Of a DNA stretch of 43,205 bases, positions 2,126-32,908 are shown one piece after another. The translations under genes were made by a program, and so were the position numbers. Within the stretch, counting starts at the first letter, position 1. Each line of letters begins with the position of its first letter. The stretch lies in IMG/VR virus record IMGVR_UViG_3300009506_000069, positions 1 to 43,205 of that record, one strand, 5' to 3'. The notes beneath the pieces are model-generated. The model saw only the letters and a list, made by a program, of their open reading frames with translations, did no database searches and was not told the origin of the DNA. Origin of the DNA: a virus (Duplodnaviria; Caudoviricetes).

Positions 2126-5100
2126 ATGAGCGAGATCAACGACAACTTCTACCGGAAGGGCAAGCGCCCAGATCCGGAAGACGCGATCGGGTACAAAGGT
2201 ACCATCCCAGACAAGAACGATCCTGTCATGCTGAAAGAGAAGGCCAGACGCGAGTTTATCGCCAAGGTGTTCGAAGAGCATGCCAAAGGTAACGACCAGA
2301 CACCTCTGATCCGCAAGATCAACAAGGCCGAAGGCGCAGACGACAACGCTGTCATGCGTGGCCTGCTTGGGATCAGGGAGCAGACGGTAAAGGGCGCGAG
2401 CTCACTCTCTGCTATGTTCGGCAACAAAGAGTCTCAGCGTTACTACGAGGGGCTCCGTACCGCGATCGATTCGCGTGGCGAAGGTTGGAACGCAGCGCAC
2501 CCAGACGAGTGGAACGTGGCGCGTGGCGTAGGTAATATGGCACCGTGGATGGTCGGAGGATATCTGGCCGGCGCGACAACCGCAGGATCTGTGGGTATGC
2601 GTATTGCGGGAACTGTTGGTCGCAACATGATAGCGGATGCGGGGACATCGCTCGGGCTCAACCTGTGGAGACCTTCTGATCAGATGGCCGAGAACGTGGC
2701 TTTCGACGTCGCGACCGGTATCGTTCCGACCGCTGTCGGTCAGTGGGGTGCTGAGGCACTCGCCAAGTCTGCTCTACGTGCCAACGCGAGACAGGTCGTC
2801 GCTATGTACAAGCAAAAGGGATACATCCCAGACATGACCAAGGACATGGAGTCCAAGCTCGTCGACAGCATGATCGCCACCAATTACGTCAAGAAGCCTA
2901 CAGAGTCTCTGGCCGGCAAAGCAGAGGTCGAGGCGATCGAACGTGCTCGGACCAAGATATTGGAAGACATCTCGCTGCAGCATGCAAAGAAGCAGATCCA
3001 GACTGCTGAAGGTTGGATGACTCAGCCTGACATGGACAAGAAGATCGCGGAGAACATGTGGGTCAGCGAGAACAAGAAGCTGATCCTGAACGCGAAAGAG
3101 TGGGTTCCAGAGACGAACATCGGAAGAGACGAGAATGGCGTCTGGCGCTTTGATACGGACGCTATCTACAAGAAGATCGATGACGATATCGATGGGTACA
3201 TCGTCAATGAGGCTAAGCGGAGCATGTACGATCCGAAGGATCCAAGATCAAACGAGAACTTCCGCAACTGGTTCGGGAACTCTCAGGTGGTCGATGAAAC
3301 AGGCGCACCTCAGAAAATGTACCACGGTACCAAAAGAGATTTCACAGTGTTCAAGGGGGACAGGTTCGGAGCATCGTACTTCACGCCTGATCCAAAGTTC
3401 ACAGAGATGTTCGCAAGCAGATCTCAGGGCTCAAACGTAATGGAAACATACCTGAAAGCGGAGAACATCTTCGACCCAGACAACCCCGCTCACTACAAGG
3501 TATTGGACGAGTACCTGACCAAGACTCTCAAACAAGAGAACCCAAACATGGCCTCGATCATCCTAGACAACAAGAAGGCAGGCTTCCTAGACAAAATCAA
3601 CGATCAAAACAACTGGATGTCGATGGAGGACGGAGCGATCCAGAAGTTCATAAAAGAGCACGGTTATGACGGGTTCTATGTGAAAGAGGAGGGCGTCAAA
3701 AACGTAGCAGTATATGACCCTGCACAGATCAAGTCCGTAAACAACTCCGGAGCGTTCGATCCAAAGGACCCGAACATCCTCAATATGAAAGGCGCGGACA
3801 ACATCGCTGCAGGTCTAGTGGCCGGCGTCGAGCAGGATGATCAGGGGAACATCACCATCAACCCAGAGAAATTCCTCGTCGGCCTCGGCGGGTACACAGC
3901 AGTCAAGGCTATGCTGAAGAGCAACACGGTCAGGACAGGAGCAAAGATCGCCGGCAAAGCGATCAAGGACGAGATGATCGGGTACGCTGCACGAGCCGTT
4001 GATGATCTCGAGGCCAAGGCGATGATGGGGGATCCAAAGGCCAGAGCCATCACTGGTATCCAACCGATCATCTCTGACCCGAACACACTGGCAAAAGTAC
4101 GCAAAGTAGAAGAAGAGATTATGTCTGGGAAAACTGAGACGCTCGTCTTCATGGACAAAAAAGGGAATGAGATCTTCAGGAAGGGTGGCAACGAGACAGA
4201 GGTTGTCGTCACCGCAAGAGAGGCTGAAAAGGTGATCGGGAAGTCTGGTCGAGGTCTTATCTACACACACAACCACCCGAACACAACAAGCTTCAGCGGT
4301 ATGGACCTGAGTACTGCCAAAGAGCTCGGCATCGACGAGGTGCGAGCAGTAGGTCTGGATGAAAGCGGTTCGTTCCTGTATGAGGTCAGCGGTCTCGAGA
4401 AGATCCCGTACTACATCGACATCAACAGAGAGTGGGAGAAGATGCTCCTGAAGTACCACCCAAAATACAAGGGCAAGTTCCTAAATATGATCGAGGGTAA
4501 CTACGACAAGACATTCAGGGAGGAGAGCGAAAGGTTCATCCTAAAAGCACACTCCCACAACGCTATGAAAAAGCTCGCCGAACAGTTCGGGTTCGAGTAT
4601 AGACGTACTCGGATCCGCCAGTACTTTAACACTCCGAACCAGATCCGCTTTGTAGACGACGCTCAGCCTGTTGTGGCGAAGATGCCGATGGAGGCAGTTC
4701 CATCAAGCAAGATGAAGTACGACCGCAACCTGTTCTACCATCAACTACACAACAACACTAACACCAGAAAGGTCGAGTTCACGAACGAAGTGATCAAGGC
4801 CCTGTCAGATGGTGATGGCAACAGCAGGATCTTGGGGCTGTTCGGTCTGAAGGTTAAGTACTCTGACGACCTGATCGGGTCTTGGGAGGGCGTTCACAAC
4901 CCTATGCGTACGCTCGACGTGCCTGTAAGGATGAACGGTGACGGAAGCGTCAACAAGATGGACGCTGCTATGCTCAACCTCGTCGACGCTCTCACTGGTA
5001 AGGCATCCGTTCAGGACGGAGTCGGTCACTTCATCGCCGGTCAGGCAAAGACAATGGACGAGGTCAGCATCGTCGACTTCCACATGGGTAAAAAGGTAAC

Positions 5101-8100
5101 AAAAGAGCTCTTCGACGAGGTCAAGAAGATCACCGGCATAGATCCGGTTGACTCGGTTGACGGCCGGAGCTTTCAGGTGATCAACTTCGAAGGCATGCCG
5201 ACCAAAGATTTTTTGGATAGAATAGCTGTACTTGAGAAGTCACTTGATCCGAAGGACGTCGTCGGCCACAAGATGGTTGACGGGAACTTCTTCTCACTCG
5301 AGAAGAACGAGGGGTGGGAGACCACCTATGATGAAGCACTTGAAAGGATTTACAATGAGATTAGGGAGCTTGGAGGAGACGAAGAAAAGATTCGCAGGGG
5401 TGCGCAGAGTATCGAAGCCGATGTCCAAGAGGTCTTCAGAAGAGAAGCAGCCAAGTATGGACTCGACTGGGACGTCAACCCCGCCAGAGCAACAGACGGA
5501 TTCGACAAAGCAGACATCTCCACAGTAGCACTGCGCAAAGGTGAGGAGAAACTCACAGGGGCCACAAAGAAGAACGCGGATCTAGCTTGGGAGCACGACT
5601 TCAGACGCCACAACCTTGACGTCCCAGTGTTCTCGCCTTACGACCATTCGCCGAAGACAAAGATGACGCTCGCCGAGGCTCTGAAGAACGAGGTGGTGTA
5701 CGAGTACAAAGAGTCGGTCAAGGCCGGCAGAGAGAGCGGGAAAGGGTGGTATGTTGAGAACTTCAACAAGGCGCTCGACTCTGTGTCACGCGAGTTTCCG
5801 CAGGTAGTATCCAACCAGAGAGAGAACACTATCTTCACCGCACTGGTCGCGATCACATCTGACTCTAACCCAGTTAAAACCAACATGCGCGTCGCCATCA
5901 AGGCGTATGAAGAGTACACCAAGACCGGCGTGATCCCTCACGTGAAGGGTGCCGGCAAAGCTATGCCGAAGATCAACGAGAACATCGACATCCTCAACGA
6001 GCTGATGAAGATGCACCCAGATGATCTGAGATCATGGCTCGGTGGCGACAACGATATCAGATCAATCACCGACATGCTCGCGCAGAAGTTCGGGAAAAAC
6101 AAGCCTGACCTTGGATATCCGCTCGACTACAAAGACGGGGTGAACTCGTTCGTGTTCGGTGCAAAGATCGGGGCCTTCTACCAGAACCTCGTAGGCAACA
6201 CGCACTACCTGACTATGGACCGTTGGTTCGAGAGATCATTCAACCGCCTGCGCGGGAACCTGCGCGGGGTTGCCACGCAGAAGTCTGTTGTGCGCTTCAC
6301 GAACGAGCTCAAGAAAGCCGGCGTAATCCCTGCCGATACCGAGTACCTAAAGGTCCCTGAGCTCAGGAAGTACGCGAAGCAGTACCACGACATCTACGCG
6401 AAGAGCGGGTGGAAGGACAAGAGCGAGATCAACAAGGCAGCGAAGGGCGTTTACGAGGGCCTTACAGCAACTGCGGACGAGCCACGCGGTGGCGCTGACC
6501 GCGTATTCCAGATCGAAACTGCCAAAGAGGCGCTTGACCTGATCAGAAGAGAGAAGGGTATGGAGGACTTCACCCTCGCAGATCTTCAGGCCGTTGAGTG
6601 GTACTATGAGAAGCGGTTCTTCAAAGAGATGGGAACCACCGCTCAGCTCAGCGACATCGGATACGGTGATATCATCGACGACGTTCTTCGAGATCTCGGC
6701 AAGAAAGCCGGCGACGCTCCGATCAGCACCAAGGACATGCTCGACAGCCGTATAGAGTTCAACGTGAGACAGCCTAACTCGTTCGGTTACGACACAGAGC
6801 TAAACTACATCGAGTCAACCGTGGTCAAGGAGGACCGAACCTTCTCGAGCATAGAGAAGGCGGAGGACGCGTTCAACGCTGCGATCCATAAGGCAGGCAA
6901 CGGTATCTACGACGTGGTCGACTTTGTATCTGGTCACAGACTAAGCAAGGCGATCCAGAAGATCAAAGACTCTGACACAACCGACGCTCTGATCGGCCAC
7001 AAGATCTACGGCAAAACAGAGTACATGAACTCGAGAAAGAGCATGATCTCAACGATCAACTCCTCGAACGTGGACTCGGAGATGCTGCACGAGCAGCTCA
7101 AGTACCTGTCACCGGAGGCGCGTATTGACATCAACCGGTACATGTCAGGCGACAGATCTGTGCCACTTGACCCAAGCCTAAGAAAGTTCGCGGATACATA
7201 CATCGGCGTCATCGATGCGAAGGGCAAACAGATGGTTGATCTGGGTCTGCTGAGCGAGGAGACATTCGAGAAGTTCAAGGGCCAGTACCTGCACAGACGA
7301 TACACCAAGGATCTAAAGGACCGTTGGGCGTCATACTCAAAGGGCAAAGGGATCCAGAAGATCTATCAGCGCGGTAAGACGTGGAAGGGAGATCTCGAGG
7401 AGCTGCTGAGTTACGAAGGCAAGACCGGCAAGTTCACAGATGGCATGATCGAAGTAAAGGAGCTCGGCGACGGCAAGTACCAGTTCCACCGAGACTGGAC
7501 CAGAGAAGAGCGAGCTGCCATGGGTGAGATCGAAGACATTGCGTTCACACTTCCGGACACACTCAACCGCCTCGACGACATGATCGCGAGCGGTAAGTTT
7601 CTCAACGAGGTTGCCGACAACGGCAAGTACGCAACACTCGACGCTGAGCTCGGTGAGGCAAGAGGGTGGGAGATGCTGCGAGGCAAAAAGTACGGCATGC
7701 TCGACGGACACTACGTTCCGAAAGATGTCTACAACGATATCACCGAGTTCAGCAAGACGTTCGGCGGGGTAGAGGGGTTCTGGACCAACCTCGGTCGCGA
7801 CTACCTGACAATGTGGAAAATGAGTCACACGGTGTACAACCCGACTGCTCACATCAACAACCTGTTCTCAAACGTCACGCTGCAGTTCGGCGCGGGGATC
7901 AACCCTGTAACAACAGTCAAGAACACATTCGTTGGGCTCAAGGTGCAGCAGGATGTCAAGATCGCTAAGCGCCTCATGGCCAAGAAGATCGTCGGGATCT
8001 CTCGCAACGAGCAGATAGAGCTGAACAAGATCTTAGCAGACAATAACGTGCAGCTTTACCTGAAGGCGGAGAAGAGCGGACTGTTCGGGAGATCAAGACT

Positions 8101-8959
8101 CAACGACACGCTAATGAAGTTCGTCGATGCCGGAGGTCTAAAGGCCAACGGGGCGACCACGTTCAGCAAGGTCAACCACAAGCTGTCATCGATCTACGGC
8201 GGGGAGGACGATATTATGCGTTACTCGATGCTCAAGACACTGACTGACAGGGGCGAGCAGTTCGACAGCGCTATGACGAAGATCAACCACACGATCCCAG
8301 ACTACACGAACCCTATGAGTTACGTCGCAACGCAGCTCAAGAACAAGGGTTTTGTGCCGTTCATGTCGTGGACGTATCACGCGATGCCGATCATGCTAAA
8401 TCAGCTCAAGAACAAGCCGAGCCGAGCGATCGCAATGGCAGCATTCCTCAGCGCGTACTACTACGCGTGGGGGATCAACCCATTCGACAACGCGGACATC
8501 CCTACAGAGGGCTTCGCGTTCGACCGAATCCCGATCGCAAAGAATGGAAGCGAGGTCATGACGCTGAAGGTCGACAAGTGGATCCCGCATGCCGAGCTTC
8601 TCAACCCGATCGAGTACTCTCGCGGTCTGGCCATGAGCGGTGTGTGGCAGGGTGCCGTGTCAACTCTGAACAACTACAACCCGTACTTCAATGCCCCGAT
8701 CACGAGGCAGGAAGGGCTCACCGGAGCGAGACAGATGACAGAGCACTTCGTCCAGAACACGCTGCCGAGTCCGGATATCGCAGACCAGATCTACAACCTT
8801 GGCCGGTCCCAGATCGTCAACAAGGACAAGAGACGCAGGAACAAGGTCATCGTCCCGAGATCTACAGAGCAGGAGCTGATCCGTCTGCTCGGGTTCAACA
8901 CGCTCGCGTATGACAAGAACGCCCAGAAGGATCGCGACAACAAGGACAAGATGAAATAA
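2126..8959 (+). CDS. Large polyvalent (ejection) protein, 2277 aa: LPD23-like, ART-PolyVal, JAB/MPN, HhH-glycosylase-like domains and helical C-terminus
   Basis: Motifs GRDENGVWRFD; NFRNWFGNSQVVD...MYHGT...YFT...GYDG; THNHPNTTSFSGMD; GWY...AITS...N...GAKIGAFYQNL...LTMDRW...LQAVEW; NPTAHINN. Confidence 0.8.
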   Translation: MSEINDNFYRKGKRPDPEDAIGYKGTIPDKNDPVMLKEKARREFIAKVFEEHAKGNDQTPLIRKINKAEGADDNAVMRGLLGIREQTVKGASSLSAMFGNKESQRYYEGLRTAIDSRGEGWNAAHPDEWNVARGVGNMAPWMVGGYLAGATTAGSVGMRIAGTVGRNMIADAGTSLGLNLWRPSDQMAENVAFDVATGIVPTAVGQWGAEALAKSALRANARQVVAMYKQKGYIPDMTKDMESKLVDSMIATNYVKKPTESLAGKAEVEAIERARTKILEDISLQHAKKQIQTAEGWMTQPDMDKKIAENMWVSENKKLILNAKEWVPETNIGRDENGVWRFDTDAIYKKIDDDIDGYIVNEAKRSMYDPKDPRSNENFRNWFGNSQVVDETGAPQKMYHGTKRDFTVFKGDRFGASYFTPDPKFTEMFASRSQGSNVMETYLKAENIFDPDNPAHYKVLDEYLTKTLKQENPNMASIILDNKKAGFLDKINDQNNWMSMEDGAIQKFIKEHGYDGFYVKEEGVKNVAVYDPAQIKSVNNSGAFDPKDPNILNMKGADNIAAGLVAGVEQDDQGNITINPEKFLVGLGGYTAVKAMLKSNTVRTGAKIAGKAIKDEMIGYAARAVDDLEAKAMMGDPKARAITGIQPIISDPNTLAKVRKVEEEIMSGKTETLVFMDKKGNEIFRKGGNETEVVVTAREAEKVIGKSGRGLIYTHNHPNTTSFSGMDLSTAKELGIDEVRAVGLDESGSFLYEVSGLEKIPYYIDINREWEKMLLKYHPKYKGKFLNMIEGNYDKTFREESERFILKAHSHNAMKKLAEQFGFEYRRTRIRQYFNTPNQIRFVDDAQPVVAKMPMEAVPSSKMKYDRNLFYHQLHNNTNTRKVEFTNEVIKALSDGDGNSRILGLFGLKVKYSDDLIGSWEGVHNPMRTLDVPVRMNGDGSVNKMDAAMLNLVDALTGKASVQDGVGHFIAGQAKTMDEVSIVDFHMGKKVTKELFDEVKKITGIDPVDSVDGRSFQVINFEGMPTKDFLDRIAVLEKSLDPKDVVGHKMVDGNFFSLEKNEGWETTYDEALERIYNEIRELGGDEEKIRRGAQSIEADVQEVFRREAAKYGLDWDVNPARATDGFDKADISTVALRKGEEKLTGATKKNADLAWEHDFRRHNLDVPVFSPYDHSPKTKMTLAEALKNEVVYEYKESVKAGRESGKGWYVENFNKALDSVSREFPQVVSNQRENTIFTALVAITSDSNPVKTNMRVAIKAYEEYTKTGVIPHVKGAGKAMPKINENIDILNELMKMHPDDLRSWLGGDNDIRSITDMLAQKFGKNKPDLGYPLDYKDGVNSFVFGAKIGAFYQNLVGNTHYLTMDRWFERSFNRLRGNLRGVATQKSVVRFTNELKKAGVIPADTEYLKVPELRKYAKQYHDIYAKSGWKDKSEINKAAKGVYEGLTATADEPRGGADRVFQIETAKEALDLIRREKGMEDFTLADLQAVEWYYEKRFFKEMGTTAQLSDIGYGDIIDDVLRDLGKKAGDAPISTKDMLDSRIEFNVRQPNSFGYDTELNYIESTVVKEDRTFSSIEKAEDAFNAAIHKAGNGIYDVVDFVSGHRLSKAIQKIKDSDTTDALIGHKIYGKTEYMNSRKSMISTINSSNVDSEMLHEQLKYLSPEARIDINRYMSGDRSVPLDPSLRKFADTYIGVIDAKGKQMVDLGLLSEETFEKFKGQYLHRRYTKDLKDRWASYSKGKGIQKIYQRGKTWKGDLEELLSYEGKTGKFTDGMIEVKELGDGKYQFHRDWTREERAAMGEIEDIAFTLPDTLNRLDDMIASGKFLNEVADNGKYATLDAELGEARGWEMLRGKKYGMLDGHYVPKDVYNDITEFSKTFGGVEGFWTNLGRDYLTMWKMSHTVYNPTAHINNLFSNVTLQFGAGINPVTTVKNTFVGLKVQQDVKIAKRLMAKKIVGISRNEQIELNKILADNNVQLYLKAEKSGLFGRSRLNDTLMKFVDAGGLKANGATTFSKVNHKLSSIYGGEDDIMRYSMLKTLTDRGEQFDSAMTKINHTIPDYTNPMSYVATQLKNKGFVPFMSWTYHAMPIMLNQLKNKPSRAIAMAAFLSAYYYAWGINPFDNADIPTEGFAFDRIPIAKNGSEVMTLKVDKWIPHAELLNPIEYSRGLAMSGVWQGAVSTLNNYNPYFNAPITRQEGLTGARQMTEHFVQNTLPSPDIADQIYNLGRSQIVNKDKRRRNKVIVPRSTEQELIRLLGFNTLAYDKNAQKDRDNKDKMK
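5328..5528 (+). CDS. Putative overprinted +1-frame ORF (66 aa) inside the polyvalent gene
   Basis: GGGAG-7nt-ATGATG; host frame locally uses TAT/GAT/ATT/AAT; TAGAAT at 5217-5222. Confidence 0.45.
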   Translation: MMKHLKGFTMRLGSLEETKKRFAGVRRVSKPMSKRSSEEKQPSMDSTGTSTPPEQQTDSTKQTSPQ

Positions 8960-13593: not shown

Positions 13594-13920
13594 ATGTCTT
13601 ACAGAAAATTAGTTGACGACCTGAACGAATGGCAGGGTGAAAGCCTTGAGAAAACTCTACGCAGGGGCGACGGTGTCGTGTGGGGTGATAATGAGTCAGG
13701 GGTATGGGAACTGTACAACGGATCTGGTACACAGGTTGCCAATGGTGTATGCACCAAGACACAGGACAAGATGGGGATAGTGGCACTCGTTCCGGAGTCG
13801 GACACTGCTGCCCTCGTAGGCAACCACGTCCTGTTGGTATACCGCTTGGACAGTAATGATGTGGGGGTAAAGGGCGTCATAGCCGAGTACCATATCGTGT
13901 ACAAGAAAAAGAGTGCGTAA
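13594..13920 (+). CDS. Hypothetical Ig/BppU-like structural protein
   Basis: 108 aa beta-rich; AGGAG RBS. Confidence 0.5.
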   Translation: MSYRKLVDDLNEWQGESLEKTLRRGDGVVWGDNESGVWELYNGSGTQVANGVCTKTQDKMGIVALVPESDTAALVGNHVLLVYRLDSNDVGVKGVIAEYHIVYKKKSA

Positions 13921-14240
13921 TGTCTCAAAAAGTCGTTGGAGACTTTGTAAAGGTCGGAACGAGGTGGATGTTGGCGACAACCCTGATCTCCTTCACCCTA
14001 TCAGGTATCCTGACGATGCTCGGGAAAGACTGGTATGGGTATATCACTTCGGTCCCAGTTACAGCGCAGCAGGTTGAAGCAAACAGGGTCAAGCTCGACA
14101 CGATCGGGAAGGACGTCAAAGAGCTTCTAATTTTGAATCACAAAAATGACGTGACACTTCATGAGCACTCGGTGGTGCTGAGATACCATGCCGATGATCT
14201 AAAGAAGTGCAGGGAAAAATTGTTTGTAAGAGGAGACTGA
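13920..14240 (+). CDS. Single-TM coiled-coil membrane protein (lysis cassette)
   Basis: Hydrophobic WMLATTLISFTLSGILTML then heptads; TAATG coupling. Confidence 0.55.
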   Translation: MSQKVVGDFVKVGTRWMLATTLISFTLSGILTMLGKDWYGYITSVPVTAQQVEANRVKLDTIGKDVKELLILNHKNDVTLHEHSVVLRYHADDLKKCREKLFVRGD

Positions 14241-14241
14241 G

Positions 14242-14613
14242 ATGGTATCTTGGTGGAGCACAATATTTGGTGGAAGTAACGTAGTCAACGACTCGATGGA
14301 GTTGATAGACAACGCGTTCTACACAGATCAGGAGAAGGCAGGGCAGAAGATCGCGCTGCTTGAGTCGTATCACCCATTCAAACTGATCCAACGCTTTCTG
14401 GCGATGTGGATCACGTCGGTGTTCATGGGTTTGCTGACACTGGAGGTGGTATTGGTGATCATCGGGCAATGGTTCCCGAGGGCGATCGAGGCCATCGCAA
14501 TGATCAACACGCTGTCCATGGTAGAGATGCTCGGGTGGGCGTTTGTTGCTGTGGTATCTCTGTACTTTACGGGCGGGGTTATCAATACTTTTGCAGGGAG
14601 GAAGAAGACATGA
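14242..14613 (+). CDS. Holin (3TM-holin-like)
   Basis: IDNAFYTDQEKA motif plus two clear TM segments, next to the endolysin. Confidence 0.7.
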   Translation: MVSWWSTIFGGSNVVNDSMELIDNAFYTDQEKAGQKIALLESYHPFKLIQRFLAMWITSVFMGLLTLEVVLVIIGQWFPRAIEAIAMINTLSMVEMLGWAFVAVVSLYFTGGVINTFAGRKKT

Positions 14614-14936
14614 TGTTCTTAAAAGATGGGGTTAGCATCGACGGCATGCAGCCTGAGATCATGATCGCGCTGATGGTCGCAAAGGACGTGTTCGCTGAGC
14701 ACGGTATAGATCTGTGCATCACTTCAGGCGTCGAGGGCGAACACGGCCCAAGATCAAAGCATTACGAGGGGAAGGCCGTAGATCTAAGACGTCGGGACAT
14801 CAAGACGCAGGTCATTGCCGAGCTGATCTTGGAGAAGCTTCAGGAGAGACTTAACGGATCCAAGGGCAACTTCAAAGGTCAGTTTGACATCGTTCTCGAA
14901 AAGACGCACTACCACCTCGAGTTCGATCCGAGCTGA
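14610..14936 (+). CDS. Endolysin, peptidase M15 family
   Basis: ITSG...SKHYEGKAVDLR...HYHLE zinc motifs; ATGA overlap with holin stop. Confidence 0.8.
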   Translation: MMFLKDGVSIDGMQPEIMIALMVAKDVFAEHGIDLCITSGVEGEHGPRSKHYEGKAVDLRRRDIKTQVIAELILEKLQERLNGSKGNFKGQFDIVLEKTHYHLEFDPS

Positions 14937-24471: not shown

Positions 24472-25173
24472 ATGGCGAGTAAGTTCATTACCGTCAGCAT
24501 AGAAATTATGCATGACACCAACTTGAGCCCGAATCAAAAGTTCATTCTTGCGGAGATCGAGCAACTATGCTCACTCGAGAGAGGCTGCTTCGCGAGCAAC
24601 AAACATTTTTCTGAGCTGATCGGGATCACAAAACAGGGCGCGTCAAAGGCGATCCAGAAGCTGCAAACTGATGGATATATTCACGTAGAGATCATACAGG
24701 GGTCAAGAAATACAGAGCGCATAATCACTCTGATCGACAGGTCATCCAATGTGGTCCAAGAAGTATCAACTGAGGTTGATGGGGTATCAACTGGAGTTGA
24801 TAGGGTATCAACTCAGGTTGATGGGGGTATCAACTCAGGTTTACAGTCTAAAGAGAATAGACAGTTTAATAAACAAGAGAATATACAAATAATCCCCGCG
24901 TGGGTAGACACGGGGGCGTGGGCGAGATGGGTCAGGTACCGGCAAGAGATCAAGAAGCCGTTGTCCCCTACCATGGTCGAGAGGCAGCTAAGTTTCCTCT
25001 CTCAGCAGCAGCATCTACATGTTGCTATAATTGACCAGTCGATCCGCAACGGTTGGACTGGGTTATTTGAGGTCAAGGGCGGTCATGTTAGCAGGACCGA
25101 TCAGAACATGCATGTCGCTCAGCAATGGGCCAACAAAGAAGAAGTCGAAGAGGTGGAGGTGATTGATGCTTGA
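24472..25173 (+). CDS. Replication initiator (wHTH plus lambda-O-like C-terminus)
   Basis: LSPNQK...CFASNKHFSELIG...LQTDGYI; W..WVRYR..IKKPL...DQSIRNGWTGLF; internal iterons. Confidence 0.85.
   Translation: MASKFITVSIEIMHDTNLSPNQKFILAEIEQLCSLERGCFASNKHFSELIGITKQGASKAIQKLQTDGYIHVEIIQGSRNTERIITLIDRSSNVVQEVSTEVDGVSTGVDRVSTQVDGGINSGLQSKENRQFNKQENIQIIPAWVDTGAWARWVRYRQEIKKPLSPTMVERQLSFLSQQQHLHVAIIDQSIRNGWTGLFEVKGGHVSRTDQNMHVAQQWANKEEVEEVEVIDA
24763..24891 (+). repeat. Replication origin: four iterons GTATCAACTnnnGTT(GAT) plus AT-rich tract
   Basis: Units at 24763, 24784, 24805, 24827 (spacing 21, 21, 22), each palindromic; followed by AAGAGAATA x2. Confidence 0.85.
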
Positions 25174-25875: not shown

Positions 25876-26087
25876 TGGTAAACGTAACAATAGGCGGTAA
25901 CAGAACCGTGATAAGCAAGCAGTCTGTGCTCGATGCGTTCATTGAGTCGAGACCGTACGAGTTTTTGAAGGCCGGCCTAAGCAATGACCACACCGGCGTT
26001 ATCAGAGACTGGCTCGTGGAAAACTACGCGATGTCAGAGGACACGTACGACAACATGACTCAGTTTGTGATCTGGAGGCTGTTTTGA
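25875..26087 (+). CDS. Hypothetical protein
   Basis: Coupled ORF. Confidence 0.6.
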   Translation: MVNVTIGGNRTVISKQSVLDAFIESRPYEFLKAGLSNDHTGVIRDWLVENYAMSEDTYDNMTQFVIWRLF

Positions 26088-26404
26088 GACGAAACCTATT
26101 CCCAAATCACAAGCGTATCAAAGGCGAAAGAGGCGTGAAGAACAGGCCGTACCTCAAGTGGTTCGCGAAACAGAACTTCCCGTGCTATATCTGCGGTAGC
26201 ACCAAAGGCGTCGAGGGCCACCACATCAAGCGCGACTCAAACGATCCAAAGAATGACGAGCAGCTGATGCCACTATGCGAGGAGCACCACAAGGGGACAT
26301 CTCTTTCACCTCACGGGACGCCGGTCCTATTCCGCAACAAGTACCCGATGGATGTGCAGCAGGAGATCGGAGAGAGATACTTCCACAAGTGGATCGAGTC
26401 ATGA
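26084..26404 (+). CDS. Zn-binding HNH-like nuclease (DUF968/Ref-like)
   Basis: YLKW...PCYICG...EGHH...MPLCEEHH. Confidence 0.75.
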   Translation: MRRNLFPNHKRIKGERGVKNRPYLKWFAKQNFPCYICGSTKGVEGHHIKRDSNDPKNDEQLMPLCEEHHKGTSLSPHGTPVLFRNKYPMDVQQEIGERYFHKWIES

Positions 26405-26811
26405 TCATACGGCATCGGAGAAGGTACAAAGAGTCGTCTCTGGCACAGAGTGTCTCAGACTATCTGCAGATGGGGTACCCAGAGGTTGTCTATCGGTTTG
26501 ACTATGCAGCGGATCTGAAGCTAACAAAGAAGCAGGCTACCAAGATGCAGCGACTGCAGGGCAAGTGGTCATCAGGCCATCCGGATCTGTTCATCTCTGA
26601 GCCTGTAGGGGAGTACCACGGTCTCTACATAGAGCTCAAAGCTGAGCGGATCATGAAGCTCGACGGTTCCGGCCTATTGAAGGACGATCATCTCGAGGAG
26701 CAGGCAGAGAGATTAAGGCTGCTGAACAAGAAGGGATATTTCGCATGCTTCTGCGTAGGGTTTGAAGACACGAAGAGAACAATAGATAATTACATGAGAA
26801 ATAAGCTATAA
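26401..26811 (+). CDS. VRR-NUC nuclease (Holliday resolvase-like)
   Basis: GHPDLFI...GLYIELK...Q...L...GY. Confidence 0.85.
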   Translation: MIIRHRRRYKESSLAQSVSDYLQMGYPEVVYRFDYAADLKLTKKQATKMQRLQGKWSSGHPDLFISEPVGEYHGLYIELKAERIMKLDGSGLLKDDHLEEQAERLRLLNKKGYFACFCVGFEDTKRTIDNYMRNKL

Positions 26812-26846
26812 TGCTCACCGAATCCAACAAAAAAAAGGAGCCACCC

Positions 26847-27236
26847 ATGGCAACAAACAAAGAACTGGCGGAAGATCTCAAGAAGGTCAGAGCGGAGAAT
26901 GAAGCTCTCAAAACAAACAACGAGATCCTTGGCGCGGAGAACACTCGTCTGGCCGAAGAGCTGCAGTCAACACTTGAGCACCACGACGAAGTGAACAAGG
27001 CATACGACGAAGAGATCGCACGTCTGCGTCAGGAGCTGCAGGAGAACACCGTTATCGAAGGAGAACCTGATGTAGGCTTCAACGATCAAGACTACGGTGT
27101 ATCCAAGCCACTCACAGACATCGTCAAGGTTGCTGAGTTCACTCACAACGTCGGCGGTCGTGGGGCGGTCGTCCGTGTTAAACCTGTAGTCAAAGGCAAG
27201 AGCTACGAAGTCTTCCTCAAAGAGATCGAGAAGTAG
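26847..27236 (+). CDS. Coiled-coil hypothetical protein
   Basis: TATAAT at 26807-26812; AAGGAG RBS. Confidence 0.65.
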   Translation: MATNKELAEDLKKVRAENEALKTNNEILGAENTRLAEELQSTLEHHDEVNKAYDEEIARLRQELQENTVIEGEPDVGFNDQDYGVSKPLTDIVKVAEFTHNVGGRGAVVRVKPVVKGKSYEVFLKEIEK

Positions 27237-27237
27237 C

Positions 27238-27462
27238 ATGGAAAATCAGCATAGAAAGATCAAGGGCTACAGAGAGCTTTCTGCAGAAGAGATCCAGATG
27301 ATGAACGATGCCAAGACTAAGGCTCAGGAGGTCGGTGATCTGATCTCCACCCTCGAAACGATCGAGAGCATCGACAAGCGTTGGTTGGCCATTGCCAAGA
27401 CGGACCTGCAGAAGGGCTTCATGTCTTTGGTCCGCAGTATCGCTCAGCCAGAGACGTTCTAA
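27238..27462 (+). CDS. acb2: Acb2-like cyclic-nucleotide sponge (anti-CBASS)
   Basis: MENQHRKIKGYRELS.EEI.MMN...RWLAIAKTDLQKGFM.LVRSIAQP.TF closely follows Acb2 as I recall it. Confidence 0.88.
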   Translation: MENQHRKIKGYRELSAEEIQMMNDAKTKAQEVGDLISTLETIESIDKRWLAIAKTDLQKGFMSLVRSIAQPETF

Positions 27463-27471
27463 GAGGCCATC

Positions 27472-27960
27472 ATGTCAAGCATTTCGTTATCGCACCAGAG
27501 AGAGAAGTTCGTCCTACAGATCTTCAGTGGTTTGAGTCAGCGGAAGGCTTACAGGGTCGCCTACCCTTCATCAGAGCACTGGAAAGACAGCGTTGTCGAC
27601 GTGAAAGCGTCGCAGCTTATGGCCGATGATAAGGTAAAGCTAAGGCTTCAAGAGCTCAGAGATGAAGAGGTCAAAGAGACCAAGTACACAAAGCAATGGA
27701 TCATGGAGCGGTTTGAGGGTGTCTTCGATAAGAGCTCTCAAGCGGTCCCAGTCATGGTGTACGACAGGGAGCTCGGCGAGTATGTAGAGACCGGTGAATA
27801 CAAGTTCGACTCTTCCGGAGCCAACAAGGCGCTGACGGAGATCGGGAAGCTTCAGGGCCACTACATCGAGAAGGTGCAACTAAGCGGTGAGCTTGACCTC
27901 AAGGCGATCGCACTGCGGAGACATGAGGAGAGACAGATGGAGAAGAAAGATGATGAATAA
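27472..27960 (+). CDS. terS: Terminase small subunit
   Basis: QREKF...SQRKAYRVAY...ASQL; FDSSGANKAL..IGK..G. Confidence 0.85.
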   Translation: MSSISLSHQREKFVLQIFSGLSQRKAYRVAYPSSEHWKDSVVDVKASQLMADDKVKLRLQELRDEEVKETKYTKQWIMERFEGVFDKSSQAVPVMVYDRELGEYVETGEYKFDSSGANKALTEIGKLQGHYIEKVQLSGELDLKAIALRRHEERQMEKKDDE

Positions 27961-28210
27961 ACTTGTAGGCGCGATCGCGTCAGTATTCGTGGGAAGCCCG
28001 ACGGAGAAGAGAGAGAACTACCACTTCGACGAGACACACTCAGCGAAGTCAAATCAACGCAACGCATCGAGAAGCAAGCGCAAGATGCTCTTGGAGCGCG
28101 GTGCGGTTCCTGACGACATCGGTGCGAGACGTTTCATCCGCAGATCTGAGAAGGCCAAGAAGGCCAAAGAGAAGAGGCTCGAGAGAGCAGCACGAAGGGA
28201 GGGTCTGTAG
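27950..28210 (+). CDS. Basic hypothetical protein
   Basis: K/R-rich 86 aa; GGAG RBS. Confidence 0.55.
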   Translation: MMNKLVGAIASVFVGSPTEKRENYHFDETHSAKSNQRNASRSKRKMLLERGAVPDDIGARRFIRRSEKAKKAKEKRLERAARREGL

Positions 28211-28211
28211 C

Positions 28212-28721
28212 ATGATGCACGATGAAGATCAATTTCAACTTGGCGACGAGACAGCCGAGTTCATGGAACTGGGGGAGAAGGTCCTCAAAGAGTCAAGGGA
28301 GAAACAGAGTTGTGAGCGCCTCGAGAGAGCTGTTCGTGACGAGATGATCGAAGAGGCTGACCGATCGTTCGATGAAGATCTCGGGCTCTCAACTGGTGGC
28401 ATGAAGCGCAGCAATACTGAAGAGGAGTTCCTCGAAAAGATGGCCAAGCGAAAACATGACATGGAGAGAACCATGATCAGGGCAGCGATCGCACATGACA
28501 TCGGGATAGACATCGAGTCAGACATCATGGACGGCCGTGACTCAGAGCTGCTCAATGTGATCACAGACGTGGCTATGGGCAACCGTGAGTCATACAACTG
28601 GCTCAAGAGAGAGCTGTACCGGCCACACGAGCAGCCTCAGGACCCGATCATGGTCCACGAGGCACCGCATGTCGTCATCAACGTATCGGGGGACTACTAT
28701 GGCTCGCTACATAGGGACTAA
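28212..28721 (+). CDS. Acidic hypothetical protein
   Basis: GGAGG RBS before ATG 28212. Confidence 0.6.
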   Translation: MMHDEDQFQLGDETAEFMELGEKVLKESREKQSCERLERAVRDEMIEEADRSFDEDLGLSTGGMKRSNTEEEFLEKMAKRKHDMERTMIRAAIAHDIGIDIESDIMDGRDSELLNVITDVAMGNRESYNWLKRELYRPHEQPQDPIMVHEAPHVVINVSGDYYGSLHRD

Positions 28722-29076
28722 AGTCGTAGAGGCGCAGCCACAGGTCCAGAACGGCGAGGAGGGCTACGAAGTCATCTATTCCGACGGATATGCCTCGTGG
28801 TCTCCTAAAGACGTTTTTGAGGCATCCTACAACCTTGTGAGCCACATGAACTTCGGTGACTGTCTGTACTACATGAAGGCCGGCGCTGCAGTGCGTCTGC
28901 CGATGTGGGGCGAAGGGGTCATGATCAGAGCCCAGTTCCCAGACGAACATTCGAAGATGACTCACCCATATCTATACGTCGAGAGTCCTAACGGCAGGGT
29001 ACCTTGGACGCCAACATTCATCGAGCTGCTCAGAGAAGACTGGGAACTCGTTGTAGAAGGAGGCGAAGATGTCTAA
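28699..29076 (+). CDS. Tad2/DUF2829-like sponge fused to an N-terminal YIGTK...SWSPKDVFE domain
   Basis: MNFGD.L..MKAG..V...W...PYLY...VPWTP...LL.EDW. Confidence 0.78.
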   Translation: MARYIGTKVVEAQPQVQNGEEGYEVIYSDGYASWSPKDVFEASYNLVSHMNFGDCLYYMKAGAAVRLPMWGEGVMIRAQFPDEHSKMTHPYLYVESPNGRVPWTPTFIELLREDWELVVEGGEDV

Positions 29077-29224
29077 GAAGTATGTCGTTACGACCGGCGA
29101 CGGTCACAGGATAGGTGAGCACTACTACACTGACTGGCTCGTGCTCGCAGTGTGGAGACTATGGCGGATCAAGCTTGACGGCCAGAACCGGCTCGTATGG
29201 AAGCAGCTGAGAGTGAATGTATGA
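29069..29224 (+). CDS. Hypothetical protein, 51 aa (not in ORF track)
   Basis: AGGAGG RBS; ATGA overlap with the TerL start. Confidence 0.6.
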   Translation: MSKKYVVTTGDGHRIGEHYYTDWLVLAVWRLWRIKLDGQNRLVWKQLRVNV

Positions 29225-30678
29225 CGATGACACCCGAGCAGATCGCAGCAGAAAAAGAGCAGATGATCATCGACTGGGGGAACAGCATCGAGCTGTTCGT
29301 TCACGAGGCGCTCGGGGTTAACCTGTACTTCAAAGAGGATCCTGACTACGACGAGCAGCAGCTCTGGGTCCTTCAAGATATCGACCGTGGTGAACAGAAC
29401 ATCGCGATCGCATCCGGACACGGTACCGGCAAGACCGCGCTCCTCGCGTGGGTAATCCTATGGATTGGGTTTTTTAAGTACGACGCCAAGATCCCAGTGA
29501 CTGCTCCGACTGCACCTCAACTCATACGACTACTCATACCAGAGGTCCGCAAGTGGGCGGAGAAGCTGCCTGCGGAGCTCAAGAAGGCCGTCAGCGTCAA
29601 GCAGGACCACGTCACATTCACCACGGAGAACGTATGCGTGGCCAGAACGGCACGTAAAGAGGCCCCAGAGGGTCTTCAGGGGTTTCACGCTACATTTCTC
29701 GGGTGGATCATCGACGAAGCGTCAGGTGTTGCGAACAACATCTTCGAGGTCATCGACGGATCCCTGACCGGCGAAGACTATCTACGGATCATGCCGGCCA
29801 ACCCTACAAGAACAGAAGGATATTTCTATGATGCATTCCATAAAAACCGCTCGCTGTGGAAGTGCCACACGTTCAACGCAGAACGAAGCCGAAACGTCAC
29901 AAAAGAGTCAATCGAACGAAAGCGGGTCCAGTACGGCCGTGATTCGGATGCTTATCGCGTTCGTGTGCTTGGTCAGTTTCCCCGTTCGTCTTCTGACTCT
30001 GTTATTCCGCTCTACGTCATCGAAGAGGCGATCATCCGTGACCCGTCGGAGACGAATCGCGCAGGCGCTGAAGTTTGGGGCCTTGATTATGCTGACATGG
30101 GTGACGATACTACTCGCCTTGCAAAGCGTGTTGGTCATGACTTTTATGCTGTCGAACAGTGTCCTGCTGAAGGAGCACATCGGCAAGTCGCAACAGCAGA
30201 CTGGCTCGCCTTCCAGTACAACAGAGCCGATCGAAAACCAAAGGCCATCTTCGTCGATGCCATTGGAGAGGGATCCGGTCTTATATCCGTCCTACGGATG
30301 GATCATTACTCACACATCCCCGTAGTTCCAATAAAAGGCAGTTCGGCTGCAATAGAGAGTGAGATATACTTGAACAAGCGATCCGAGCTCTTCTTCAGGC
30401 TGAAGGGCATGTTGGAAGACGAAGGACGCATGCTTGACGATGACTCGATCATCGGTGAGCTATCTGCTCAGAAGTTCAAGATCTCTACCGGAGGGAAGCT
30501 TCAGCTGATCCCGAAGGAAGAGATCAAGGAAGAGCTCGGGAGATCTCCAGATCAGGCCGATGCGATGGCTTTATGCTGCGCAGAGATCATCGTAACGGAA
30601 GAGGACGTCGAAGAGGCCAACAAGCGTTACCACACCGAGTTTGTAGAAGAAGACGACGGGGGGTACGGTTCATGGTAG
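29221..30678 (+). CDS. terL: Terminase large subunit
   Basis: SGHGTGKT Walker A, IIDEASG Walker B, NPTR, GLDYA, RSPDQADA. Confidence 0.95.
   Translation: MTMTPEQIAAEKEQMIIDWGNSIELFVHEALGVNLYFKEDPDYDEQQLWVLQDIDRGEQNIAIASGHGTGKTALLAWVILWIGFFKYDAKIPVTAPTAPQLIRLLIPEVRKWAEKLPAELKKAVSVKQDHVTFTTENVCVARTARKEAPEGLQGFHATFLGWIIDEASGVANNIFEVIDGSLTGEDYLRIMPANPTRTEGYFYDAFHKNRSLWKCHTFNAERSRNVTKESIERKRVQYGRDSDAYRVRVLGQFPRSSSDSVIPLYVIEEAIIRDPSETNRAGAEVWGLDYADMGDDTTRLAKRVGHDFYAVEQCPAEGAHRQVATADWLAFQYNRADRKPKAIFVDAIGEGSGLISVLRMDHYSHIPVVPIKGSSAAIESEIYLNKRSELFFRLKGMLEDEGRMLDDDSIIGELSAQKFKISTGGKLQLIPKEEIKEELGRSPDQADAMALCCAEIIVTEEDVEEANKRYHTEFVEEDDGGYGSW
29828..30325 (+). CDS. Putative overprinted two-TM membrane protein inside terL (+1 frame, 165 aa)
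   Basis: AAGGA-7nt-ATG; two ~24-29-aa hydrophobic runs separated by an Arg-rich loop; T-ending TerL codons at those runs. Confidence 0.65.
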   Translation: MMHSIKTARCGSATRSTQNEAETSQKSQSNESGSSTAVIRMLIAFVCLVSFPVRLLTLLFRSTSSKRRSSVTRRRRIAQALKFGALIMLTWVTILLALQSVLVMTFMLSNSVLLKEHIGKSQQQTGSPSSTTEPIENQRPSSSMPLERDPVLYPSYGWIITHTSP

Positions 30679-30980
30679 AAGACAAAGAGAAGACGATCGT
30701 GTGTCACGAGCCTAATGCAGGGCGACTGCTGAATCTTGAGGCGATGATCTTTTTGAATGGTGGCGATCCGTTCAAGGCACTGGCCTTCGCAAGAAGGTAT
30801 GATCAAGTGCGGGTGACGGTGAGTCTTGAGTCAATCGAAAGGGCTCTCATGGCGTGGTGGATAAACACCGGTTGGGAGGATTCCCAGATCGTTGAGGCGT
30901 TGAGCACAGAGGACCGCAAGGTCACACTGGCCAGAGTCGAGAGAATGAGGAGAAAACTAAATGTCAAAGAAGAAGACTAG
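30672..30980 (+). CDS. Hypothetical protein, possibly Mor-like HTH activator
   Basis: ALAFARRY...V.V...C-terminal HTH-like segment; weak resemblance only. Confidence 0.4.
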   Translation: MVEDKEKTIVCHEPNAGRLLNLEAMIFLNGGDPFKALAFARRYDQVRVTVSLESIERALMAWWINTGWEDSQIVEALSTEDRKVTLARVERMRRKLNVKEED

Positions 30981-32664
30981 GGCGGATATCATCGAGGCCA
31001 GTAAGGCACAGATGATCCTGCTCAAAGACACTGCGATGCGCGGGTATGATCAGCACGAGGCTGACTTCCTGACGCTTGAGCAGGCGTACATCGGTACCGT
31101 GGACGAACGGCAGCGGACATCACTCAAGAAGAGACGAAAGTCTTCACTGGAGATCCAGATCATCAAGCCGAAGGTCATGAAGGTCACACGTGAGATCATG
31201 AAGTCGTTCTTTGGGGGCAACGAGCTCGCGAAGATCACACCGGAGAACAGCGAAGACAAGGATCTTGTCAAGGCGTTATCAGAGGAGCTAAAAGACTATG
31301 CAAGAACCGAGAAGTTTTACACGCGATGCAAGCCATCTATTCGAAATCAACTTGTTTATGGAACTTCTGTCTCCAAGGTTTACTGGGCGAACAATAATGT
31401 CCGCATTGAAAACTGCTCTCTCGCCGATGTGTGGATTGACCCATACGCTCAGGATGCGGATTCGGTCAAATATGTCGTTCACAGAATCACCTCCCTAACG
31501 ATAGGGGACATCAAGCGATGGGTTCAGGCTCGATGGGACGACAGATCAGACAGAACCAACGGTCTGGTTGAGGTCAACCCGAGCAGCGTTGACTGGACCA
31601 AGTTCGCGAACAACAGCGCAGCGATGAACGGATCCGTTGAGGATGTTGGGGAATACGCTCGTCCGGAGATGTACGAGATCTACCGCATCACACCGAACGG
31701 GTGGACTGTTTCGACGATGATGGACAACGAGGAGTTCATGCGACTCGAGGAGCCACTCAATGACGGCAACCCGTTCATCATCTCTCAGCAGGATCCGCAG
31801 TTCGTCGGTATCAAAGAGACGCCGGTCAGAGGTTACGGCGCTCCGTTCATCGACGCTATGATCCCGCTGCAGAAAGAGTACGCGATCCGTCGCAACCAAC
31901 AGATCGACGCCATTGACATGCAGCTCAATATGCGTCTACTGACTACGAAGAACAACGGTCTGAGAGAGGAGGACCTGAACTCGCAGCGCAAGAAGCTCGA
32001 AGTGTCAGATCCGAACATGGTGGTACCGCTGCCAACCCCTCGCATCGATCAGTCGTTCTTCGATACAGACAAGCTCGAGAGCGAGATGCAGGAGATCTCC
32101 GGAGTCACCAAGTACTCTCAGGGGATCAACGACAAGGCCAACCTCAACCAGACGGCCACAGGCATGTCTATTCTCGCGCAGGAAGGGTCAGGTACCATCG
32201 ATGACGTGAACAGGTCAGTGAACGAGTCTTTCTTCACGCCTATCGTCCATCGCATCGTCCACCTGATCTACAAGTACAAGGAATCAGAGCGGTTCGCAAA
32301 CGTGACACGTCTTGGAACACTGAAGGCGAAGATCCTTATTGACGTCGGCACCGGATCGACCAACAAAGAGATGCAGCTGAACAACATCGACAACGCGATC
32401 ATCGCCGTCGGTGACTCTATAGAGAAGTTCAGGAACATAGAAAAGTTGGAAGAAGTTGACAAATATGCTAAACTTCTTGACTCACTTAACCGAGAGAAAC
32501 TTAAGATACTTGGGTTTGGAACCCTTATGGAGGAGATAGACGATGATTACGAGCAACAACAACAAGCAGCAGCCGAACTCGGAGCAATCGGAGCAAGTAC
32601 AGGAGCAGTCGGAGAAAATGGAGCAGGAGGGCCAATTATTGAGCCTTCAGCGCCTCCTGCTTGA
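30961..32664 (+). CDS. Portal protein (SU10/P22-like)
   Basis: 567 aa after TerL; LVYGTSVSKVYW, VWIDP, MQEISGV...QG...NQTATG. Confidence 0.9.
   Translation: MSKKKTRADIIEASKAQMILLKDTAMRGYDQHEADFLTLEQAYIGTVDERQRTSLKKRRKSSLEIQIIKPKVMKVTREIMKSFFGGNELAKITPENSEDKDLVKALSEELKDYARTEKFYTRCKPSIRNQLVYGTSVSKVYWANNNVRIENCSLADVWIDPYAQDADSVKYVVHRITSLTIGDIKRWVQARWDDRSDRTNGLVEVNPSSVDWTKFANNSAAMNGSVEDVGEYARPEMYEIYRITPNGWTVSTMMDNEEFMRLEEPLNDGNPFIISQQDPQFVGIKETPVRGYGAPFIDAMIPLQKEYAIRRNQQIDAIDMQLNMRLLTTKNNGLREEDLNSQRKKLEVSDPNMVVPLPTPRIDQSFFDTDKLESEMQEISGVTKYSQGINDKANLNQTATGMSILAQEGSGTIDDVNRSVNESFFTPIVHRIVHLIYKYKESERFANVTRLGTLKAKILIDVGTGSTNKEMQLNNIDNAIIAVGDSIEKFRNIEKLEEVDKYAKLLDSLNREKLKILGFGTLMEEIDDDYEQQQQAAAELGAIGASTGAVGENGAGGPIIEPSAPPA
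31298..31498 (+). CDS. Putative overprinted +1-frame ORF inside the portal gene (66 aa)
   Basis: GAGGAG-10nt-ATG; local switch to ATT/AAT/TAT/GAT/TTT codons. Confidence 0.45.
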   Translation: MQEPRSFTRDASHLFEINLFMELLSPRFTGRTIMSALKTALSPMCGLTHTLRMRIRSNMSFTESPP

Positions 32665-32908
32665 GATTGACCAGTTCGGGGCCTCGACGTTCAAGACCAT
32701 TCTTGTCGACGAGATCAACGCTGAGTACATGTCGGTAGTGCAGCAGAGTCAGGCGAAGGGGTGCGATCCTTACGACATGAAGTGGCTCGTGGGGAGGGCA
32801 AGCGGTCTTGTTTACGCGCTGTCGCTTATTAACAGCATGAAGAACAGAACAAAAGAGAGCATCAACATGCTCGAGGCGGAATTAGCGCCAACATCTGAGG
32901 AGGTGTAG
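32543..32908 (+). CDS. Hypothetical head-assembly protein overlapping the portal 3' end
   Basis: GGAGG RBS; alternative start 32618. Confidence 0.6.
   Translation: MITSNNNKQQPNSEQSEQVQEQSEKMEQEGQLLSLQRLLLEIDQFGASTFKTILVDEINAEYMSVVQQSQAKGCDPYDMKWLVGRASGLVYALSLINSMKNRTKESINMLEAELAPTSEEV

Follow-up and report, generated by a model that had tools for sequence, protein, structure and literature searches.

The window, that is the whole stretch of 43,205 nucleotides analysed here, represents a 43-kb podophage of marine, uncultured origin whose relatives are Campylobacterota phages. Between positions 26000 and 36000, contigs from two of three runs spanned the whole region without any difference; both runs may be the source of the window. 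The genome generally prefers C/G-ending codons. The genes and frames considered were the following.

2126..8959, plus strand: polyvalent protein of 2277 aa with an ART-PolyVal domain (domain match)
5355..5528, plus strand: nested +1 ORF of 57 aa in the polyvalent protein, AAGGA 6 nt upstream; weakly to moderately supported
29221..30678, plus strand: terminase large subunit (TerL), host gene (PHROG 2, E 4e-40; 97 homologues at E<=1e-100)
29816..29820, plus strand: AAGGA Shine-Dalgarno (SD)-like site, 7 nt upstream of the nested ATG, formed by host codons GAA GGA
29828..30325, plus strand: nested +1 ORF of 165 aa, likely a membrane protein with two helices, overprinted on TerL codons 211-376 (numbering from 29197)
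29951..30007, plus strand: hydrophobic segment 1 (aa 42-60, mean KD 2.37)
30008..30067, plus strand: basic loop, predicted cytoplasmic (aa 61-80; 8 K/R, zero D/E)
30083..30139, plus strand: hydrophobic segment 2 (aa 86-104, mean KD 2.28), overlying the invariant TerL columns D297-Y298-x-D300
30961..32664, plus strand: portal protein, host gene (PF23899, E 5e-22), its final 40 codons overlapping the next gene
31298..31498, plus strand: nested +1 ORF of 66 aa in the portal gene, with an open start region preceded by AGGAG at a distance of 10 nt; moderately supported
32465..32539, plus strand: 24-codon +1 frame, no SD
32543..32908, plus strand: conserved ordinary post-portal gene of 121 aa with homologues in relatives; the C-terminal end of portal runs across its start

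The TerL ORF is open from 29197 and the public gene call (P0099) begins at 29221. The name 'ejection protein' for the polyvalent protein was presumed from its size and position.

A first-pass annotation had proposed a hidden layer of +1-frame genes of shared design inside the TerL, portal and polyvalent protein genes. Its five ATGs exist and each is +1 to its host (5328, 66 aa; 29828, 165 aa; 31298, 66 aa; 32465, 24 aa; 32543, 121 aa), yet the layer held only in part: 29828, 31298 and 5355 displayed start-like features, whereas 32543 and 32465 were discarded as hidden genes. The former overlaps portal by its first 40 codons only and has homologues in relatives; a profile built from eight of these retrieved it as the only match among 861 six-frame segments (E 2.9e-9). 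The latter, devoid of an SD, is likely noise, a side effect of the AT-rich sequence that precedes the start of 32543.

The elements of the supposed design fared unequally. The TAT-G or GAT-G junction is a tautology since a +1 ATG can arise only from NAT followed by G, and GAT and TAT together supply 155 of the 231 nested +1 ATGs. Local GATC depletion was not borne out (P 0.07-0.20 per ORF; gaps ranking 5th, 10th and 18th among 554 sites). A 5-nt SD match was present at 29828, 31298 and 32543, as well as at 5355, but absent from 5328 and 32465. Likewise, the shift to T-ending host codons was strong at 29828 (z=6.7) and present at 31298 (two-fold T 13/23, versus 6/27 and 12/99 in the flanks; bias-loss segment 31273-31473), but weak at 5328 (segment score 6.8, null 95% 10.3). 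Position 5328, G-rich upstream but folded (TIR -13.0), was rejected as a start in favour of 5355 in the same frame.

Nested +1 ATG ORFs occurred at chance numbers in this genome, with 19 versus 20.6 for those of at least 40 aa and 9 versus 8.3 for those of at least 60 aa. The whole genome was scanned blind for frames combining an SD of at least 5 nt, an open start region (TIR threshold -7.5, chosen after the values were seen; lenient alternative run, -10.5) and at least 50 codons. Exactly 5355, 29828 and 31298 emerged, three frames where 0.13-0.55 were expected (P between 0/500 and 7/500). In 35k codons of related phages (87 genes), nested SD ORFs of at least 50 codons were absent. The TIR test overlooks some annotated nested genes, since T7 19.3 passes the SD test and fails this one.

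The frame at 29828 distinguished itself first by its codon signature. Its third-position T (T3) enrichment, with z=6.7 over 80 codons, is the strongest of the genome and exceeds all null genome maxima (95th percentile 4.3, maximum 5.65 in 150 simulations). The T-ending host codons are gathered in two blocks, each reading in the +1 frame as a helix of transmembrane grade, one on either side of the basic loop; in these blocks T was observed 34 times for 13.7 expected and A twice for 8.6, a T ratio of 2.5 compared with at most 1.4 in 23 relatives. These T-rich, A-poor blocks alternate with A-rich, T-poor flanks and an NCG-rich loop. A second hydrophobic segment of at least 2.28 arose in none of 5000 local shuffles preserving the codons of the patch and in none of 250 genome-wide synonymous shuffles under each of three schemes (0/750 in total), and the frame ranked first among 159 nested ORFs of 359 host genes, the next one scoring 1.69. 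For segment 1, the conserved YRVRVLG motif already imposes part of the shape, and similar shadows occur in L111 and L134. Eight K/R in the loop had a P of 0.001-0.003 for limits picked after viewing. The two-helix assignment combines hydropathy with the helices modelled by AlphaFold for the 165-aa product (residues 32-64 and 70-123; mean pLDDT 65).

Other causes of the TerL patch were considered and set aside, namely RNA structure (z -0.05) and sigma-70 promoters (2 found versus 3.7 expected). An imported tract is not indicated, since divergence from P0001 (91% identity) is alike inside (17/166 differences) and outside (22/288) the overlap. The segment of bias loss extends about 60 nt beyond the nested stop. 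An in-register antisense ORF of 92 aa at the same patch was rejected, its start signal not being evident.

The start signals of the 29828 frame are those of an ordinary gene. Its SD duplex (-4.8) is stronger than that of the TerL start (-3.1), the AAGGA motif is also found upstream of annotated starts, e.g. that of the MCP gene, and folding of the start region (-6.1) compares with medians of -7.1 for annotated starts and -12.8 for the 231 nested ATGs. As these signals outscore those of TerL itself, we infer that the 165-aa product would be translated from its own SD on the late terminase mRNA. The frame is also open for 20 codons upstream of the ATG, from host codon 191, which could suggest entry by frameshifting in TerL and a membrane-anchored terminase ATPase fusion; yet a normally spaced SD and an open start region favour initiation, no slippery site came to notice, and we regard this explanation as extremely improbable.

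Length by itself is a weak argument, the probability of the 29828 frame being open given local codons amounting to 0.064. All nested frames might be shadows of T/A-rich codon patches generated by mutation, old recombination or needs of the host genes, with no purposeful translation: such patches remove +1 stops, create ATGs at NAT-G junctions and purine-rich motifs, and confer hydrophobicity through the geometry of the code. The chance-level ORF count agrees with this, as does a T-rich patch devoid of any +1 ORF at 37971-38264. So does the MCP gene, with its T3-driven, unconserved 277-codon +1 frame; this one was rejected as a gene (no SD of at least 5 nt, folded start at -13.4, T3 mostly at four-fold sites) and was broken in all 13 relatives listed. 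Under 35-codon block shuffles, moreover, the joint P for the gene-like starts of 31298 and 5355, which spans 0.001-0.14 depending on the null, rose to 0.036-0.138. Against the shadow explanation, the TerL patch is not uniform, its block alternation is unmatched in AT-rich relatives or in shuffles, and non-preferred two-fold T amounts to 22/50, unlike the 21/94 of the MCP gene. We consider it rather unlikely overall, and the 29828 frame is probably a real overprinted gene.

Absence of conservation and of homologues also fits shadows. The first-pass annotation had called for conservation of RBS, ATG and open frame in relatives, and this failed throughout: the +1 frame was broken in 26/26 TerL relatives (42-68% identity), in 10/10 further matches (four new, six repeats) and, for 31298, in 18/18 portal relatives. 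With identities of only 30-68% among the tested relatives, an old layer is ruled out by this result but a young one is not; the 29828 gene, if real, is therefore young. Close DNA relatives were absent from blastn against phages and from IMG/VR pattern searches with the portal and polyvalent proteins. A distant TerL (L002) displays a 180-codon +1 frame. Homologues of the 165-aa product were absent by word search; phmmer on 1.84 billion sequences gave a sole match, P0098, a tandem-repeat artefact; an Atlas search gave nothing and Foldseek no fold match at E<=0.001. No holin family was matched in Pfam, PHROGs or NCBIfam, and weak Pfam/NCBIfam matches to models of transmembrane proteins, well below the cut-off (E 0.004-0.03), were dismissed as mere hydrophobicity. 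TerL conservation was not raised within the overlap, and TerL substitutions showed no +1-silent bias in an uninformative protein-level test on P0001-P0003, of which P0002 is 84% identical (P 0.29-0.81).

The frames at 31298 and 5355 may be further young nested genes. The first is quite possibly real, although we lean slightly against it; the second is more doubtful. No homologue covers the stretch around 5355, and five prophage-bearing genomes contained nothing matching this region.

The nested ORFs had been proposed to form a co-expressed counter-defence set against Avs-type sensors of terminase and portal: at least three new +1 genes in TerL, portal and polyvalent protein would shield these triggers from pattern-recognition defences, trigger and antidote being inseparable. 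Three start-like nested ORFs do exist, two of them within TerL and portal, and according to PMC13601566 Avs2 senses terminase and Avs4 portal; in 201 genomes of a family that carries related prophages and is thus the likely host group, Avs2 exceeded the cut-off in 3 and Avs4 in 2. The free-standing Acb2/Tad1 and Tad2-like genes of the phage are placed near terS, which could also be seen as favourable. Yet TerL and portal are among the longest late genes, so that nested ORFs are expected there regardless, and related phages possess the same triggers without the frames. Besides, 32543 is an ordinary gene, and the nested products resemble no family of the Pfam, PHROG and NCBIfam libraries. The strongest of the nested frames would encode a membrane hairpin, and the phage is already equipped with Acb2/Tad1 and Tad2-like genes. 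The anti-Avs proteins described in the literature consulted comprise a DNA ligase and a protein with a Rossmann fold, not membrane hairpins. With no family, homologue or fold match behind it, the proposal is unsupported and in our opinion very unlikely.

We moderately favour the reading that 29828 is a recently overprinted gene for an inner-membrane hairpin, made late and acting on the host membrane, plausibly as a lysis accessory. Both ends of the protein would face outwards (N-out/C-out) and the basic loop would lie inside; its action on the host membrane would most plausibly be accessory to lysis or lysis timing. Were the gene real, a lysis-related role would be quite possible, though at somewhat less than even odds. 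A candidate lysis cassette with hydrophobic segments is located apart, at 13920-14936 (genes 13920, 14242 and 14610), which counts against it; the endolysin match there is weak (E 0.09), and the candidate endolysin, 14610, presumably carries an M15-like motif. The separate cassette rather suits another membrane role for a real TerL-nested gene, such as superinfection exclusion or loop-mediated membrane tethering of packaging and assembly, which would share the TerL codon evidence. Such a role has neither homologue nor partner, however, and expression of exclusion genes usually takes place early or in the lysogen, whereas the 29828 frame sits in a late operon; we hold it to be improbable.

Comparison with known systems would place this putative accessory hairpin among overprinted phage genes; the TerL-nested frame represents no new type of system, and its function is a proposal. 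Like 29828, T7 19.2 and 19.3 (NC_001604.1) lie wholly inside terL in the +1 frame with their own SD-like sites, 19.2 starting at TerL codon 216 and the 29828 frame at 211. Both are annotated as hypothetical; we found no paper on them, nor, judging by title and abstract start, any on nested terminase genes. The 29828 product showed no homology to gp19.2 or gp19.3 (PHROG 8982/8173 unmatched; pairwise E 0.25), and the T7 products are shorter (85 and 57 aa), with a maximal KD of 1.1 and no T3 shift, in contrast to 165 aa, two hydrophobic segments and strong T3. Class II holins also possess two transmembrane helices. Their topology is N-in/C-in, and the basic loop of the 29828 product may point to N-out/C-out; 29828 lies 15 kb from the candidate endolysin instead of adjacent to it. 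Nested o-spanins, among them lambda Rz1 and T7 18.7 (in 18.5), are likewise out-of-frame envelope proteins nested in late genes; 29828 differs in its host gene, which is TerL and not an i-spanin gene, in its two helices and in lacking a lipobox, none being found by a regular-expression scan of six frames.

The nearest model for the origin of the frame is gene E within D of phiX174, where, according to PMC8227390, T3 of the ancestral frame became second-position T of the new frame and hence a transmembrane segment. Both cases combine a +1 frame, an SD and hydrophobic segments drawn from T-ending host codons. In phiX174, according to the same text, T3 richness is genome-wide and E is the lysis gene with a single transmembrane domain, whereas T3 at 29828 is confined to two blocks and a candidate lysis cassette exists separately. 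The Sgl genes of ssRNA phages are described in PMC7693330 as young, lineage-specific and homologue-less, with SD and TMD; 21 of 33 active ones are in the +1 frame of rep, and only about 22 of 158 SD+TMD candidates (a figure obtained by subtraction) were active in E. coli. They are short, belong to tiny RNA genomes and avoid catalytic motifs (same source), while 29828 is found in a 43-kb dsDNA phage and overlaps invariant TerL columns. The gene would have been born by overprinting once its lineage had split from the 66% clade, along the same T3-to-hydrophobic route as E.

The combination of SD, open start and synonymous-shuffle hydropathy tests is applicable to any single phage genome. If 29828 is real, it would represent a datable, clean birth of a membrane protein atop a conserved part of a tailed-phage terminase, its nuclease core, and one that can be seen in the codon choice of a single genome. 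It would extend the route of phiX174 E and the Sgls to large dsDNA phages and provide an analogue, open to experiment, of T7 19.2 and 19.3, which are still hypothetical. It would also suggest that terL and other late genes with weak translation conceal unannotated membrane genes.

Among the +1 frames singled out by the first-pass annotation, the one nested in the large terminase gene (TerL) is probably a real gene. It is located as follows.

2126-8959, + strand: 2277-aa protein with an ART-PolyVal domain
29197/29221-30678, + strand: TerL
29828-30325, + strand: nested +1 ORF in TerL, with AAGGA 7 nt upstream, an open start and blocks of T at host third codon positions (T3)
30961-32664, + strand: portal, SU10-type
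32543-32664, + strand: portal C-terminal tail, overlapping the start of the following gene by about 40 codons, in the window and related loci L042, L043 and L071
33804-34739: capsid protein, SU10-type

The 43,205-base window displays direct terminal repeats. Positions 26000-36000 were covered by contigs from two of three runs with no differences, both of which may be the record's source. A host in the Campylobacterota can only be inferred, since it rests on the named TerL relatives (Helicobacteraceae and Campylobacterales MAGs, Hydrogenimonas, Nitratifractor).

The AAGGA motif also precedes several annotated starts. The 29828 start region folds at -6.1 kcal/mol (median of annotated starts, -7.1), more weakly than about 97% of nested ATGs. 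The T-ending codons at this ORF (z=6.7) exceeded all 150 simulated genome maxima and were concentrated in two blocks (T 34 vs 13.7 expected; A 2 vs 8.6) between T-poor flanks. Read in +1, these blocks form two segments, with mean hydropathies of 2.37 and 2.28, separated by a loop with eight K/R and no acidic residues (P 0.001-0.003, loop boundaries being chosen post hoc). An equally hydrophobic second segment appeared in none of 5000 shuffles of the patch's own synonymous codons, and genome-wide synonymous shuffles gave 0/250 under each of three schemes. The ORF ranked first of 159 nested ORFs from 359 genes (window and fetched loci), the runner-up scoring 1.69. AlphaFold without alignment predicted two long helices (mean pLDDT 65), the tails being of low confidence. 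RNA structure, promoters and an imported tract were each examined as causes of the patch and none explained it.

Conservation spoke against the ORF, as the +1 frame was broken in all 26 TerL relatives compared (42-68% identity, several near-duplicates) and in 10/10 further matches, four of them new. None of 23 relatives exceeded a 1.4-fold T-block excess. Openness by itself was weak evidence (P=0.064 given local codons), one distant TerL displaying 180 open +1 codons and the major capsid gene an unconserved 277. Segment 1 is pre-shaped in other terminases too, by the conserved motif YRVRVLG. Neither sequence searches nor fold comparison gave a homologue or a related fold for the product. Two close relatives, P0001 (91%) and P0002 (84%), known as proteins only, were compatible with the frame (RTEGYFYDA retained, overlap without forced stop); at the protein level, no added constraint was seen in their overlap. 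TerL M301 (30097-30099), beside the invariant D300 and beneath segment 2, is Met in the window, P0001 and P0002 and Ala, Gly or Ser in the other 27 aligned homologues. A distant TerL group (L006:1808-3200, L008:5967-7359) carries a 65-codon +1 ORF at host codon 322, with a Shine-Dalgarno-like (SD) match and an open start. Four related TerL genes (L051, L052, L053, L060) are interrupted at residue 75-76, near Walker A, where about 1.1 kb is inserted in frame, and long homologues (P0015, P0017) carry PF05203/PF14528 domains; both features are consistent with inteins.

The five ATGs initially proposed (5328, 29828, 31298, 32465, 32543) did open +1 frames, of 66, 165, 66, 24 and 121 codons, respectively, nested +1 ATG ORFs being at chance number (19 vs 20.6 expected). 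Their supposed common design fared less well. A TAT-G or GAT-G origin was uninformative since a +1 ATG can arise only where G follows AAT, CAT, GAT or TAT; these four are minority codons in the window, and GAT and TAT supplied 155/231 nested +1 ATGs. GATC depletion was not significant (P 0.07-0.20 per ORF). An upstream ribosome-binding site stood for 29828, but 32465 lacked an SD match, and AAGGA with an open start belonged to 5355, in the same frame, instead of 5328. The codon shift was a real anomaly; in loss of codon bias, segment 5321-5428 came eighth (score 6.8). Seven codon-bias-loss segments scored at least 8 in a genome scan (0.30 expected): the TerL ORF, the portal tail, the portal ORF, the replication-initiator gene, a 37971-38264 patch, one gene end and the major capsid gene start. 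The strongest (24664-25170, +), inside the O-like initiator gene, is possibly an embedded origin. The 37971-38264 (+) patch, AT-rich and made of non-preferred codons, lies in a 751-aa gene, has no +1 ORF and is spanned by a 173-codon antisense frame (38336-37815). The major capsid +1 frame is open for 277 codons (33901-34734, +; P 4e-4 with the codon usage of the genome, 0.11 with that of the gene itself) and was rejected, having no good start and being broken in all 13 relatives listed.

A blind scan (SD of at least 5 nt, open start, at least 50 codons) returned just 5355, 29828 and 31298, against 0.13-0.55 expected; with terL removed, two remained against 0.09-0.67, P rising from 1/1000 up to 138/1000 with nulls that preserved more of the local composition. 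The 87 genes of close relatives held no nested SD ORF of at least 50 codons (2.2 expected). The 31298 ORF coincides closely with bias-loss segment 31273-31473, its frame is broken in 18/18 portal relatives, and its chance of being a gene falls somewhat short of even; 5355, in a stretch without homologue coverage, is a rather doubtful gene. Neither product showed a hydrophobic segment by hydropathy or a family match.

The 32543 ORF (121 aa), by homology with relatives, is the family's post-portal gene and not a hidden one: a profile from eight relatives' post-portal genes matched only its segment among 861 (E 2.9e-9). This gene starts at the portal stop in most close relatives, whereas in L042, L043, L071 and the window its start overlaps the portal tail in +1. 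From this distribution, the portal's last 40 residues are likely the newer frame, a tail gained by overprinting. The 32465 frame, 24 codons without SD in an AT-rich stretch ahead of 32543, was discarded as likely noise.

That the nested ORFs form a counter-defence set against trigger-sensing defences appears very improbable. Terminase and portal are indeed triggers of Avs defences (Avs2 senses terminase and Avs4 portal, according to PMC13601566), and Avs2 and Avs4 occurred in 3/201 and 2/201 genomes, respectively, of a family carrying related prophages, but no finding connects any nested product with defence, and the nested frames are missing from relatives that have the same triggers. Two free-standing anti-defence candidates flank terS.

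27238-27462, + strand: Acb2/Tad1-hairpin candidate (E 3e-17)
28702-29076, + strand: Tad2-like candidate (E 8e-13)

Genes 19.2 and 19.3 of T7 are likewise annotated inside terL in the +1 frame, yet are unrelated in sequence to the TerL ORF, and their products are not hydrophobic. The literature searched, covering few subscription journals, held no report of a terminase gene that encloses a two-helix one. Basic loops stay inside according to the positive-inside rule, so the product of the TerL ORF would enter the membrane as a hairpin, its basic loop inside, and late in infection it may act on the inner membrane. With a weak start for TerL itself (SD duplex -3.1, against -4.8 for the nested one), the late mRNA would be open to internal initiation at the nested ATG. 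A candidate lysis cassette already present argues against a role in lysis.

13920-14936, + strand: candidate lysis cassette of three proteins, one with a single helix, one with two helices (phrog_9646) and one of 108 aa

The 108-aa protein has a weak PHROG endolysin match (E 0.09) and what we take to be an M15-peptidase-like motif; a regex search for a lipoprotein spanin found none. Also counting against lysis, only about 22 of 158 SD+TMD candidates (by subtraction) were active in a screen of Sgls, the single-gene lysis genes of ssRNA phages (PMC7693330). The Sgls of that study are a precedent for the T3-to-transmembrane route, as is phiX174 E in D (PMC8227390). Since the tested overprinted, T3-derived phage membrane proteins are lysis proteins, a lysis-accessory or timing role is tentatively favoured for the TerL ORF, if it is a gene, and by this analogy its product might assist or time the lysis of the host.
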